From Escherichia phage FL12: DNA of 64,000 bases. The notes under the pieces are model-generated. The model saw nothing but the letters and a program-made list of their open reading frames with translations, was not told where the DNA came from and made no database searches. The position numbers and the translations under genes were made by a program. This document shows positions 5,944-11,221 of this stretch, piece by piece (the first letter of the stretch is position 1; each line of letters begins with the position of its first letter). Location: the sequence record PP400786, one strand, 5' to 3'.

Positions 5944-5968
5944 GGGACCGAAAGGTCCCTTTTTATTT
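5944..5968. terminator. bidirectional terminator between convergent genes 24 and rnlB
   Basis: GGGACCGAAAGGTCCC hairpin flanked by A-tract on one side and T-tract on the other. Confidence 0.7.
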
Positions 5969-6971
5969 AGCTCATTAACTCAATCCAAGCTGGACGAAGT
6001 ACATCTTGCACCATTTTAACTAATTCCTTTTTAATCAAAGAAGGATTATCTGCTTGAGTTAGAGTAATACCTTCACGAGAAGTTTCTTCCAAAATATCTT
6101 GAACAGTTAGCCCCATCACCTTTCCAAAATCCTTTGGACCAATTTCGCCAATTTTAGAAATAACGTTATTTACTCGGTTCAGTGTAACGTAACAAGCTAA
6201 AATCCCCACCAATTTGTTATCAGCTTCTGACAGTTCAACTTTAGCTTTAATAGGCTTATCAGACTTTTTCTTTTCACTAAATTTGGAATTCTTGCATTTA
6301 ATCGCTACACGATTGCGATTAGGCAGCCAAGAAGGATAACAAGGTTTCAATACATATCCTTCAGCAGTAAATACTTCGCCTTTTGCTTCGGCATTCCAGA
6401 CGCATTTATTTGCATCAACTAATCCAGCATGGTCTACTGTAAAATTATAATCTTGGACGACAGAATCTAAATCATTTGGCAATTTAATAAGCTCTTCAAA
6501 TTTACCGCGACCTAAAAGTGGAGCCATTTTAAATTTAAATGTATTACAGAATGATTCCATCATATAATCGTCGACATAAGTCACATCACCACTTTCTGTA
6601 GTGACAATAATGTCAAATACATAAAAATCTTTATCACCATAATCAACATTCTTCTGAATGCCAGGTCCAGCGAATTCGCCAAAGACTTGATAAGATACAA
6701 CCGCTGAGGTTTCCATAATATCTTGTACTGCTTTAATGGAATCAGCGTAATTCTTTAGAATAATTTCATACCCAAAGAAATCTTCAGCGGGAAGAATCGG
6801 TCCAGTACGTTTAGCGCAAGTTACTTTATCACGCTCAATAATCAATGAGAAATTTGTGCCGTGAATCTTTTCACGAGCTACCCATTCGCCGCCAGTCAAT
6901 CCTAAGTTATAAAGTTTTTCAATAAATTTAGAGTTGTAATGATTTTCAAGACTGCTATACTTTTTAAACAT
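5967..6971 (-). CDS. rnlB: RNA ligase 2
   Basis: 334 aa; nucleotidyltransferase motif I lysine in REKIHGTN; T4 Rnl2 length and position. Confidence 0.9.
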
Positions 6972-7259: not shown

Positions 7260-7461
7260 TTTTCACCTTTTTATTGATATGTCTTTTTCTATAGACAACT
7301 TTTTCTCGAGTTTCAAATTTATTCTTAGCAGTCATAGCTCGAGCCCATAATACAGCCACTTCTTTTGCCTGTAAGTTCAATTCACGAGCAATTTCAATGA
7401 ATGACTTTCCAGACTCATGAAGAGTAAACACCACAACCTCAGTTCTCATAATCAATCTCAT
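7246..7461 (-). CDS. hypothetical small protein (position of T4 24.3), possible HTH
   Basis: 71-aa ORF overlapping the downstream ORF start; basic C-terminus. Confidence 0.55.
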   Translation of the reverse strand: MRLIMRTEVVVFTLHESGKSFIEIARELNLQAKEVAVLWARAMTAKNKFETREKVVYRKRHINKKVKNGTV

Positions 7462-7526
7462 GTTATCGAGTTGGTGCCATTATATACATCATTTTCTGAT
7501 TGTGTTTTGTGTGCTTTCAAAATGAA

Positions 7527-7546
7527 GAAAGGGGCCGAAGCCCCCT
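7527..7546 (-). terminator. terminator hairpin downstream of hoc
   Basis: GGGGGCTTCGGCCCC hairpin with T-tract on minus strand. Confidence 0.6.
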
Positions 7547-7550
7547 ATGA

Positions 7551-8969
7551 TTATGGATAGGTATAGATGATACCAGTTTCTAAAGCAGTTTTATGAATGA
7601 TGTATCCATTACGTGATTCTTGAACATCAACTTCTGGATAGTCTTTCATCATCTTCTGAAGAGTGTAACGATGCAGGTAATATTTACTATCTGGATCGTC
7701 AGTTTTCCAATCTTTACCTTCTTCAGTCATTTTTTGGATTTCATCCATAACCCACCAACCGCACCAGATGTAAGCTGAAGTACGATGTGGAAGAGGATGA
7801 ACATAAGGTAATTCACCTTCTGGTTCTGGAGCAACTTTATCAGTTACCTGAACTTGACCTTCTGCTGTGATAGTTTTGCTATCATAATCAGTAGCAGTAA
7901 CAGTTGCAGTAACTTCAATAGTTTGACTTCCAATAGATGATGTATCAACGGTGTATACATTAGTTGACCCTTCTACAGGAGAAGAATCTTTCTTCCATGA
8001 ATACGCAATTTGTGCTTCTTCTGGAGCATCAGTAACATTAGCAGTAAATGTAGCCGAAGCATCTTGCTGGACGTTAATAGAAGGAGGAGTCAATGTAACC
8101 TGTGGATTCATTGTCTTCTTATTAACTGTCAATGATACTTCATTAGAAGTAACTTCCTTTTCATTGTAATTTTCTGCCGTTACTTGCGCTACGCATTTAA
8201 TTCTTTTTACTCCACTTGTAGTTGGAGTGTAATTGAACGTAGCATTAGTTTCTCCACCAACTTGTGAATCATCTACATACCATTTATATGTAGCAGACGC
8301 TCCAACAGGTTGAGAAACCAAGGCAGCAGTAAATTGAACTGGGGTTCCAATTACTCCAGCTGAAGGACTATCAGGAGTTACGGCTAATGTAGTTGTCTGC
8401 GTCTTTTTATTAACAGTCAGTGACACTTCATTGGAAGTAACTTCCTTTGTATCATAATCTGTCGCGGTTACTTGAGCTACACACTTAATTGTTTTAACTC
8501 CGCTTGTGTCAGGAGTGTAATTGAATGTAGCGTCAGTTGCTTCGCTTACAGGAGAACCGTCAACGTGCCATTGATACGTAGCAGATGCACCTGGCGGCTG
8601 TGAATCTAAGGCAGCGGTAAATTGAACGGCTGTTCCAATCACTCCAGCCGCAGGACTAGCAGGAGTTACAGCTAAGGTAGTCGTTTGTGTCTTATTTTGA
8701 ACTGTGATAGTTGTTGTCGCTTCAGCCGTTTCCGGGCCTCCTTCAGAAAGTGTATTTGTTGCAACAACTTTAATTGTTTTTGTTCCAGCAGGTCCTTTTA
8801 ATACATAATCAAAAGTTGCCGCTGATCCTTCTTGTGGAGCATTATCTACACTCCAAGCATAGGTAATAGTTCCACCTCCAGTTTGACCACTGGGTGCAGC
8901 AGTAAACTGCTGAGTCTGATCTATAACTCCAGTAGGTGTTTTAGGAGTTATATCAACTGTAAAAGTCAT
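7551..8969 (-). CDS. hoc: outer capsid decoration protein Hoc, 472 aa with four Ig-like domains
   Basis: Ig-like repeats rich in T/V/A plus conserved C-terminal capsid-binding tail; about 96 aa longer than T4 Hoc (376 aa). Confidence 0.9.
   Translation of the reverse strand: MTFTVDITPKTPTGVIDQTQQFTAAPSGQTGGGTITYAWSVDNAPQEGSAATFDYVLKGPAGTKTIKVVATNTLSEGGPETAEATTTITVQNKTQTTTLAVTPASPAAGVIGTAVQFTAALDSQPPGASATYQWHVDGSPVSEATDATFNYTPDTSGVKTIKCVAQVTATDYDTKEVTSNEVSLTVNKKTQTTTLAVTPDSPSAGVIGTPVQFTAALVSQPVGASATYKWYVDDSQVGGETNATFNYTPTTSGVKRIKCVAQVTAENYNEKEVTSNEVSLTVNKKTMNPQVTLTPPSINVQQDASATFTANVTDAPEEAQIAYSWKKDSSPVEGSTNVYTVDTSSIGSQTIEVTATVTATDYDSKTITAEGQVQVTDKVAPEPEGELPYVHPLPHRTSAYIWCGWWVMDEIQKMTEEGKDWKTDDPDSKYYLHRYTLQKMMKDYPEVDVQESRNGYIIHKTALETGIIYTYP
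8118..8693 (-). repeat. tandem duplication of a ~288-bp unit (two ~96-aa Ig-like domains) inside hoc
   Basis: Hoc residues 93-188 and 189-284 are near-identical in sequence (KTQTTTLAVTP...EVTSNEVSLTVNK twice). Confidence 0.85.
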
Positions 8970-8978
8970 AAGTTATCC

Positions 8979-9659
8979 TTATTTTAATGTTACGAAAGAA
9001 GAATTGCGTGTTTCACGAATTAGAACTGATCCGTCACGATTAATGTAGTAAATTAAACTAAACAAAGTTTGATGCGCAGACGCATGTTCAAAACTGGTTG
9101 GGCGAGATTTCCAATCTGGAGTTTCAGCTATCCATTGATAAATCCACCAAGGAACAGTGCAGAATCCTGGATTTTTTCCAATCAGCTGAAGATTTGGACT
9201 AAAGTTTTCCGGAAGAGTAAATACAGACGGCTTTTCAGATTCAATAATCTCAGCTACAGCCTGTTCGAATTTTTCTTCAACAAAAGGAGTATCTTCAATC
9301 AAAACTGAGGTATTTTCAGGAATTTTATCCGTTTCTACTACTTCAATTTTAATGTCAGATTTAACCGGAGAATCAATCAGAAGTGCTGCTTCTGGATTGA
9401 CTTCTTCATCGTCATATTTTAATCCCTCTGCAGCATCAGCAGCATCAATTAAGTCTTTAATAGATAACCCATCAGTCTCTGGCATAGGTTCACTAGCGAG
9501 CTTCTGGAGGGCTTCTTCAATATCAACAACGATATTATCAAAAGATTTATTCTTTTTGACCTTTATACCAAACTGTTCAGCATATTCAGCTAATTTAGCT
9601 TTAGCTTCTTTGTTATCATCAAGAGCCTTCAGCTCTGCAATATAATCTTTATCTATCAT
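8979..9659 (-). CDS. inh: inhibitor of prohead protease Inh
   Basis: 226 aa, T4 Inh length and position downstream of hoc. Confidence 0.8.
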   Translation of the reverse strand: MIDKDYIAELKALDDNKEAKAKLAEYAEQFGIKVKKNKSFDNIVVDIEEALQKLASEPMPETDGLSIKDLIDAADAAEGLKYDDEEVNPEAALLIDSPVKSDIKIEVVETDKIPENTSVLIEDTPFVEEKFEQAVAEIIESEKPSVFTLPENFSPNLQLIGKNPGFCTVPWWIYQWIAETPDWKSRPTSFEHASAHQTLFSLIYYINRDGSVLIRETRNSSFVTLK

Positions 9660-9672
9660 AATATTTCCTCAG

Positions 9673-9680
9673 TATAAATA
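9673..9680 (+). promoter_or_regulatory. late promoter TATAAATA for uvsW
   Basis: Exact TATAAATA about 30 nt upstream of the uvsW ATG. Confidence 0.55.
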
Positions 9681-9709
9681 TAGATATATTTATTACATGG
9701 TATTTAGAC

Positions 9710-11221
9710 ATGACTGACATTAAAGTACATTTTTATGATTTTAGTCACGTGAGAATTGATTGTGAAGAAAGTACATTTCATGAACTCCGTGATTTCTTTA
9801 GCTTTGAAGCTGACGGGTATCGTTTTAATCCTCGCTTCAGATATGGCCACTGGGATGGACGAATTCGTCTTTTAGATTATAATCGTCTTCTTCCATTCGG
9901 CTTAGTCGGGCAAATTAAAAAGTTCTGTGATAACTTTGGCTATAAAGCCTGGATTGACCCACAAATTAACGAAAAAGAAGAATTATCAAGAAAAGATTTT
10001 GATGAATGGCTTTCTAAATTAGAAATCTATTCAGGAAATAAAAGAATTGAACCACACTGGTATCAAAAAGATGCAGTGTTCGAAGGATTAGTTAATCGTC
10101 GTAGAATTCTTAATCTTCCAACATCCGCTGGTAAATCTTTAATTCAAGCTTTGCTTGCGCGGTATTATTTGGAAAATTATGAAGGTAAAATTCTTATCAT
10201 TGTTCCAACAACTGCTCTGACAACTCAGATGGCTGATGACTTTGTTGACTATCGTTTATTCAGTCATGCAATGATAAAGAAAATTGGTGGCGGAGCATCA
10301 AAAGATGATAAATATAAAAATGATGCACCAGTCGTTGTTGGTACATGGCAAACTGTAGTTAAACAACCGAAAGAATGGTTCTCACAGTTTGGAATGATGA
10401 TGAATGATGAATGCCATCTTGCTACAGGAAAAAGTATTTCATCTATCATATCAGGTTTAAATAACTGCATGTTTAAATTTGGTCTATCAGGTTCATTACG
10501 TGATGGCAAAGCCAATATCATGCAGTATGTTGGAATGTTTGGTGAAATATTTAAACCAGTAACGACTTCTAAATTAATGGAAGATGGACAAGTAACTGAG
10601 TTAAAAATTAATAGTATTTTTCTTCGCTATCCCGATGAGTTCACTACTAAATTAAAGGGAAAAACTTACCAAGAAGAAATAAAAATTATTACTGGGCTCA
10701 GTAAAAGAAATAAATGGATCGCTAAATTAGCTATTAAGCTTGCGCAAAAAGATGAAAACGCTTTTGTCATGTTTAAACATGTATCACATGGTAAAGCTAT
10801 TTTCGATTTAATTAAAAATGAATACGATAAAGTTTATTACGTATCAGGGGAAGTTGATACCGAAACCCGCAATATAATGAAAACCTTAGCTGAAAATGGT
10901 AAAGGAATAATTATAGTAGCGAGTTATGGCGTATTTTCTACTGGTATTTCAGTTAAAAATCTGCATCACGTTGTTTTAGCGCACGGTGTTAAATCAAAAA
11001 TCATTGTATTACAAACAATCGGTCGTGTATTACGTAAGCATGGTTCTAAGACAATAGCAACAGTCTGGGACCTCATAGATGACGCAGGCGTCAAGCCAAA
11101 ATCTGCTAATACGAAAAAGAAATATGTTCATTTGAACTATCTTTTAAAACACGGCATTGATCGTATTCAGCGCTACGCAGATGAAAAATTTAATTACGTA
11201 ATGAAAACAGTTAATTTATAA
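9710..11221 (+). CDS. uvsW: UvsW DNA/RNA helicase
   Basis: 503 aa; Walker A (TSAGKS) and DECH box (MMNDECH) helicase motifs. Confidence 0.93.
   Translation: MTDIKVHFYDFSHVRIDCEESTFHELRDFFSFEADGYRFNPRFRYGHWDGRIRLLDYNRLLPFGLVGQIKKFCDNFGYKAWIDPQINEKEELSRKDFDEWLSKLEIYSGNKRIEPHWYQKDAVFEGLVNRRRILNLPTSAGKSLIQALLARYYLENYEGKILIIVPTTALTTQMADDFVDYRLFSHAMIKKIGGGASKDDKYKNDAPVVVGTWQTVVKQPKEWFSQFGMMMNDECHLATGKSISSIISGLNNCMFKFGLSGSLRDGKANIMQYVGMFGEIFKPVTTSKLMEDGQVTELKINSIFLRYPDEFTTKLKGKTYQEEIKIITGLSKRNKWIAKLAIKLAQKDENAFVMFKHVSHGKAIFDLIKNEYDKVYYVSGEVDTETRNIMKTLAENGKGIIIVASYGVFSTGISVKNLHHVVLAHGVKSKIIVLQTIGRVLRKHGSKTIATVWDLIDDAGVKPKSANTKKKYVHLNYLLKHGIDRIQRYADEKFNYVMKTVNL

Follow-up and report, generated by a model that had tools for sequence, protein, structure and literature searches.

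The Hoc protein of a T4-like coliphage carries four Ig-like domains in a common two-unit layout

Hoc (highly immunogenic outer capsid protein), the capsid decoration protein of T4-type phages, falls into length classes that differ by whole domains. In the window, i.e. the complete 64,000-nt stretch of Escherichia phage FL12 DNA analysed here, a first-pass annotation described a Hoc of 472 aa instead of the 376 aa of T4, and explained the surplus by a recent tandem duplication of an Ig-like domain. This raises the question of whether the additional domain arose lately in this genome or belongs to an older, shared variation of the gene. The length difference of 96 aa is confirmed by the open reading frame list and by phmmer. 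The gene is a single open reading frame with an ATG start and an intact reading frame, and its product matches T4 Hoc (PDB 5vf3_Z, 376 aa) with an E value of 1e-229. The alignment falls into two stretches, T4 1-134 with query 1-134 and T4 102-376 with query 198-472, which is the pattern that an additional copy of the stretch around T4 residues 93-188 produces. At the nucleotide level the gene is 96.6% identical to the annotated hoc of phage Ge15 (PP359696). Its surroundings, with rnlB (5967-6971), two small ORFs, hoc, inh (8979-9659) and uvsW (9710-11221), have the gene order of T4-type genomes, and the position between inh (hoc.1) and 24.3/24.2/rnlB agrees with the annotated loci of T4, Ge15, UGKSEcP1, RB3 and DalCa. 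Since the first 25 kb of the window are also about 96.8% identical to many Tequatrovirus genomes, we regard the gene as very probably the intact hoc of a Tequatrovirus (a T4-like coliphage), in the common two-unit 'a-b' allele of the domain 2 array described below.

This Hoc has four Ig-like domains in its fibre, followed by a capsid-binding C-terminus, as opposed to three Ig-like domains in T4 (Table 1). An AF2 model built with 34 homologues has four beta-sandwich domains over residues 1-378 at a pLDDT of about 87-95, with strands at 3-91 in D1 (pLDDT about 88-95) and at 290-376 in D3; the C-terminal domain is modelled with low confidence. Pfam places a PKD domain above the cut-off at residues 195-267, within unit B, while the Ig_3 and I-set matches at 289-373 (D3) lie just below their cut-offs. 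When the model was searched against the PDB with Foldseek, the best matches were four-Ig strings (Dscam1, Sidekick and ICAM-5 D1-D4, E about 1e-13), and the RB49 Hoc fragment 3shs was found as well. Pfam, AF2 and Foldseek hence agree on an N-terminal string of Ig-like (PKD/I-set-like) beta-sandwich domains and, together with phmmer, on the assignment of the surplus to a fourth such domain, as had been proposed; this domain is a paralogue of T4 domain 2. The C-terminal domain is homologous to T4 Hoc 281-376. The contacts to gp23 described by Fokine et al. (2023; PMC10385173), in T4 numbering among others Tyr293, His295, Arg300, Trp309, Trp310 and the ESRNG loop, are retained: in the protein of the window they are Y389, H391, H395, R396, W402, W405, W406 and E451-S-R-N-G455, all of them invariant or nearly so in the homologue alignment.

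Table 1. Features of the hoc locus, in window coordinates
Feature	Position	Strand	Basis
hoc CDS for 472 aa, with the stop codon at 7551-7553	7551..8969	-	ORF list, phmmer, identity to Ge15
Ig-like domain 1 (D1), residues 1-92	8694..8969	-	aligns with T4 Hoc 1-92; AF2 beta-sandwich
Repeat unit A ('a' type with SPVSEATD at its centre), residues 93-188	8406..8693	-	repeat searches, direct count, unit typing
Repeat unit B ('b' type with SQVGGETN at its centre), residues 189-284	8118..8405	-	nucleotide identity to T4 D2, Pfam PKD
Ig-like domain equivalent to T4 Hoc domain 3 (D3), residues 285-380	7830..8117	-	aligned to T4 189-284
C-terminal capsid-binding domain, residues 381-472	7554..7829	-	nearly identical to T4 Hoc 285-376
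Putative intrinsic-terminator-like hairpin AGGGGGCTTCGGCCCCTT with T-rich tail	7519..7546 (hairpin 7529-7546)	-	consensus scan

The two central domains form a tandem repeat whose dimensions match the earlier description in every detail. Tandem Repeats Finder reports a period of 288 with 2.0 copies and 78% matches at 8113-8693, a separate repeat search returns two 288-nt copies with 77% identity, and the segment 8118-8693 corresponds exactly to codons 93-284. Counted position by position, residues 93-188 and 189-284 agree at 77 of 96 amino acids (80.2%) and their codons at 223 of 288 nucleotides (77.4%), a similarity that chance could not produce. Both units start with KTQTTTLAVTP and end with EVTSNEVSLTVNK. 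The 65 nucleotide differences are distributed over codon positions 1, 2 and 3 as 13, 11 and 41, which gives a dN of 0.117, a dS of 1.115 and a dN/dS of about 0.1 (Nei-Gojobori). For comparison, D1 and D3 plus the C-terminus have a dS of 0.08-0.46 among five Tequatroviruses (window, T4, Ge15, UGKSEcP1 and RB3). Identity is spread over the whole repeat, with 15-21 matches per 24-nt block, and the longest uninterrupted run in register measures 15 nt.

Each unit resembles units of other phages more than it resembles its neighbour. Unit A shares 100% nucleotide identity with unit 1 of Ge15 and 88% with unit 1 of UGKSEcP1, but only 80% with T4 D2. Unit B, on the other hand, is 98% identical to unit 2 of Ge15, 92% to the single unit (D2) of RB3 and 86.8% to T4 D2 (dS 0.37). 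By these identities, unit A is the surplus domain in comparison with T4, and unit B the counterpart of T4 domain 2. The added domain, which the first-pass annotation put ahead of the conserved C-terminus, thus sits between D1 and the T4-D2 counterpart and does not adjoin the C-terminal domain. T4 Hoc (PDB 5vf3, 8t1x, 8t9r) is otherwise the same gene at the same locus and has all named gp23-contact residues; it lacks the 96-aa D2-type unit that occupies residues 93-188 here.

The layout is by no means private to this phage. Hocs of 472 aa with the identical arrangement D1, a, b, D3 and C-terminus are found in Ge15, PhiZZ30, SHFML-11, slur02/04, wV7, fPS-90 and the BASEL 'capsid whiskers' phages; these Tequatrovirus genes are 88-97% identical to that of the window over the full 1419 nt, have the same neighbours and show only allelic differences. 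A comparison of Hoc lengths across T4-type phages, which had been recommended as a check, revealed classes of 376, 472 and 568 aa with one, two and three units. Among the 120 best protein clusters, 80 fall in the 376-aa class, 29 in the 472-aa class and eight in the 568/570-aa class, although these clusters are the best-scoring matches to this query and share ancestry, so that architecture counts are not independent samples. Several 472-aa clusters hold 50-170 member sequences. The classes lie exact multiples of 96 aa (one unit) apart, and with the conserved unit order described below this marks the D2 array of Tequatrovirus Hoc as variable in copy number from one to three units.

For an estimate of frequencies, copy number was taken from the span per record and then from the places per record that a single unit matches. 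Whole-gene megablast coverage was dropped as a measure, because one-unit genes join into places with 100% coverage. In an evenly spaced sample of the megablast ranking, 22 records spanned about 1419 nt and 30 about 1131 nt. A blastn search of the phage record collection with unit B alone gave 890 places in 616 records, and in an even sample of 60 the number of places per record was one in 36, two in 22, and three and four in one each. With tblastn, a 568-aa Hoc retrieved about 20 distinct records with a gene of 1704-1710 nt. Roughly 59% of the approximately 616 deposited T4-type hoc genes would accordingly have one unit, 37% two and 3-4% three, estimates that rest on samples of 52-60 records and on the ratio of places to records rather than on a full census. 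The two-unit layout of this phage is an ordinary, common variant.

To describe the arrays we typed units by their central motif as a (SPV.EA), b (SQV.GE), c (SLV.GE) or d (SQI.EA). Single-unit proteins contain a (66), b (11) or d (4). The two-unit architectures are a-b (22 and the window), a-c (3), a-d (2), b-c (1) and a-a (1), and the three-unit architectures are a-b-c (4), a-d-c (2) and a-b-d (2); the orders b-a, c-a and c-b do not occur among the typed architectures of the 120 best clusters. Three-unit Hocs of 568/570 aa (UGKSEcP1/2, YUEEL01, EC101, slur03/08/14 and T4_ev151) draw on the same unit family in the same order, with a and b or d as the first two units and usually a 'c' type (SLVDGETT), which is absent from the window, as the third. 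Independently of the central motif, 24 of the 39 first units in multi-unit proteins end in an 'LSVT' tail, which all 47 units in second or third place lack. The fixed order and the distribution of this tail identify the units as position-specific paralogues, and taken with the substitution pattern, units A and B appear to be old paralogues of this kind that evolve under purifying selection. In unit A of the window the tail reads 'TKEVT' in place of the 'LSVT' seen in many first units. It is important to note that the patterns at diagnostic sites make the units strongly mosaic across the 120 homologues. The single unit of T4 (D2) combines a b-type centre with a-like ends and a first-unit-type LSVT tail. 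We considered whether it might be a simple 5'-A/3'-B chimera, i.e. a deletion scar, and dropped this idea in view of the a-b-a pattern, the pervasive mosaicism and the tail motifs. Owing to the mosaicism a simple tree-like history does not hold, and the present forms may reflect either loss from an a-b(-c) array or gain by exchange.

Tequatrovirus Hoc is polymorphic, with one, two or three domain 2 units (376, 472 or 568 aa), and compared with T4 this phage has an additional 'a' unit between D1 and the T4-type D2. In the proposed history, recombination has very probably reshuffled the units from phage to phage. The polymorphism shows that copy number changes on evolutionary time scales, probably through exchange between phages. 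As to the direction of change, a multi-unit array (a-b or a-b-c) could be ancestral for T4-type hoc and the one-unit form of T4 a derived deletion, a scenario to which we give slightly less than an even chance. It would account for the conserved unit order in all multi-unit forms and for the existence of one-unit genes of the a, b and d types. Likewise, the a/b divergence exceeds that of the flanks, and RB3, which has one unit of the b type, is separated from the window by a dS of only 0.12 in D3 plus C-terminus while its unit shares 92% identity with unit B. A separate allele lineage of 471 aa (Mosigvirus O157tp3, Tequatrovirus DalCa) also has four Ig-like domains, two of them D2-like. However, units a and b share 80% identity, against only 50-54% with the Mosigvirus-type d2, so the a/b split either followed the divergence of that lineage or the units were homogenised later. 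Moreover, the T4 unit, with its b centre and LSVT tail, lacks the simple 5'-a/3'-b structure that unequal crossover within an a-b array should leave, and ancient one-unit a and b alleles joined by unequal exchange would yield the same unit tree.

The Mosigvirus-type Hoc deserves a closer comparison. That of E. coli O157 typing phage 3 (471 aa), shared with DalCa, has four Ig-like domains with two D2-like domains in tandem. Its C-terminal domain is 98% identical to that of the window at the protein level, and the corresponding DNA (window 7551-7826) is 96-98% identical to O157 typing phage 3, DalCa and phiC120, whereas the Ig string is only 42-65% identical and its DNA too diverged for megablast. 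The D2-like pair is 40% identical mutually and 43-54% identical to unit A; the former value indicates that this duplication is older or independent. As one 471-aa four-Ig Hoc is common to a Tequatrovirus (DalCa) and a Mosigvirus (O157tp3), the whole Ig string seems to have been exchanged between genera, with a breakpoint at the boundary between the Ig part and the C-terminal domain. With two four-Ig allele lineages present, gain and loss of domains in Hoc are recurrent. Beyond these phages, published descriptions of PNJ-9 (two Ig-like domains), Muldoon (ten) and PG7 (one) report an Ig string on the conserved capsid-binding domain with differing counts and distant sequences.

With regard to function, conservation of the C-terminal domain suggests that it would anchor one Hoc at the centre of each gp23* hexamer, as seen in the structure of T4 Hoc (PMC10385173). 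The four Ig-like domains would project as a linear fibre one domain longer than that of T4, and scaling from the published 180 A of the four-domain T4 fibre, the gain would be about 45 A on roughly 180 A. Unit A would add one more potential glycan- or surface-binding module. In PNJ-9, whose two-Ig Hoc variant has been functionally characterised, domain 2 binds MUC2 fucose and the SLT motif is required (PMC11853027). This motif is kept at the end of both units of the window, as S183-L184-T185 and S279-L280-T281.

The extra domain might nevertheless be neutral length variation, with the number of units drifting by recombination without an effect on fitness. Hoc is non-essential (PMC10580926) and all three length classes coexist in phages of the same hosts, which speaks for this explanation, but we consider it less likely than not. 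The low dN/dS in both units is a sign of purifying selection, position-specific unit types are maintained, and both units retain the motif implicated in MUC2-fucose binding by PNJ-9 domain 2 (PMC11853027). At the other end, a fully adaptive account would treat the units as ordered cassettes, with a first, b or d next and c last. Their copy number (1-3) and mosaics would be reshuffled time and again between co-infecting phages, and the variation would be maintained by selection that acts on the length of the fibre, on its binding to glycans or on escape from antibodies; Hoc length would then be adaptive and tunable, and the three-Ig form of T4 a derived deletion. Taken as a whole, this account is speculative and rather unlikely.

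We now return to the age of the duplication. If the gene had arisen from a T4-like 376-aa hoc by tandem duplication of the domain 2 segment, shortly before sampling and in this phage's lineage only, the perfect 288-nt register of the units and their shared first 11 and last 13 residues would be readily understood. Yet the dS of 1.1 between the copies is 2.4 to 14 times that of orthologous hoc parts among Tequatroviruses, the same a-b layout recurs in about 230 other records, and units A and B each have their own, closer orthologue in Ge15. Hypermutation after a recent duplication would leave these orthologous units in other phages unexplained. Neither near-identical synonymous sites nor absence from close relatives, the hallmarks of a recent tandem domain duplication, were found, and with about 37% of genes in the two-unit form the claim of recency is untenable; such an origin is highly improbable. 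Near-identical units were absent from every sampled multi-unit Hoc, where pairs share 56-85% of their amino acids with a median of 79% (55 pairs from the 120 best protein clusters). The synonymous divergence, the closer orthologues elsewhere and the absence of near-identical units together place the a/b split before the diversification of the sampled T4-type hoc genes, so that the pair was not created recently in this genome.

An assembly artefact through false repeat expansion, which had been named as the finding that would overturn the annotation, has nothing in its favour beyond the presence of a tandem repeat and can be excluded, given copies that are 22.6% diverged with a longest identical run (15 nt) below any usual assembly k-mer, an intact reading frame, a purifying-selection pattern in both copies and the same 1419-nt gene in hundreds of independent assemblies. 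The same short runs of identity weaken the suggestion that the repeat is a ready substrate for expansion or contraction, as long uninterrupted identity between the copies, typical of a recombination-prone repeat, is missing from this genome. Recombination in T4 depends on the length of homology and needs longer stretches. Intragenic homologous crossover would thus be expected to be rare, and, as far as the sequence of the two copies allows a prediction, it is unlikely to be frequent between units A and B in this phage.

How much of this is new? Hoc homologues (650) have been described as strings of Ig-like domains on a conserved C-terminal domain, from one in PG7 to ten in Muldoon (PMC10385173, section 3.6), and the number of Ig-like domains varies greatly even among close relatives of T4 (Fokine et al. 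2023, PMC10385173). The four-Ig Hoc found here is real but ordinary, and variation in domain number among Hoc homologues has been published before (Fokine et al. 2023). A limited text search of the literature found no paper that describes the 376/472/568 series of Tequatrovirus or the order of its unit types, and PMC10580926 and PMC13248984 contain nothing on domain number beyond the T4 layout. We see the series and the ordered units as a modest refinement of known variation. For the window itself this matters little, as hundreds of public genomes already carry the 472-aa form with a Hoc annotation. Phage display and vaccine scaffolds make use of Hoc, which has also been implicated in mucus adherence (BAM model). 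In T4, the laboratory reference, Hoc is present in its short form, although in nature it occurs with one, two or three domain 2 units, and the natural 376/472/568-aa series offers ready-made isogenic-style variants with which mucin binding, particle dispersion and immunogenicity could be probed as a function of fibre length or domain 2 number.

Several deposited hoc genes depart from the expected form. In Escherichia phage T4_ev151 (LR597660.1; 301-2007 of the extracted locus) hoc encodes three units (a-b-c, 568 aa), in contrast to the 376 aa of reference T4, so that the region either does not stem from T4 or was acquired by recombination. In Escherichia phage T2 (PV648363.1, 8283-9399) the match covers 1117 nt instead of the expected 1131 nt and three CDS pieces are annotated, which is consistent with a disrupted hoc. 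The two-unit gene is annotated as 'capsid whiskers protein Hoc part 1 / part 2' in NHEP10 and FriedrichMiescher (MZ501066, 13298-14714), and this two-part annotation suggests that hoc is frameshifted or interrupted in some phages.

Finally, the locus shows a few features outside the coding sequence. Only 9 nt separate the stop codon of inh from the start of hoc (window 8969-8979). No T4 late-promoter consensus TATAAATA was found on the minus strand directly upstream of inh or hoc, and the sole nearby match lies at 9673-9680 on the plus strand, ahead of uvsW. The gap between inh and uvsW (9660-9709) comprises just 50 nt without a segE homing-endonuclease gene, while in T4 strain 147 segE (144-761 of the extracted locus) lies upstream of hoc and inh. 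Antisense ORFs within hoc on the plus strand (7620-7778, 7951-8169 and 8832-8987) are taken as mechanical by-products. The strong, G+C-rich AGGGGGCTTCGGCCCCTT hairpin begins 5 nt past the hoc stop codon, and a rho-independent terminator is annotated in phage DalCa at the equivalent place 3' of hoc; across 7400-9750 there are five terminator-like sites, compared with 1.3 in shuffled sequence.
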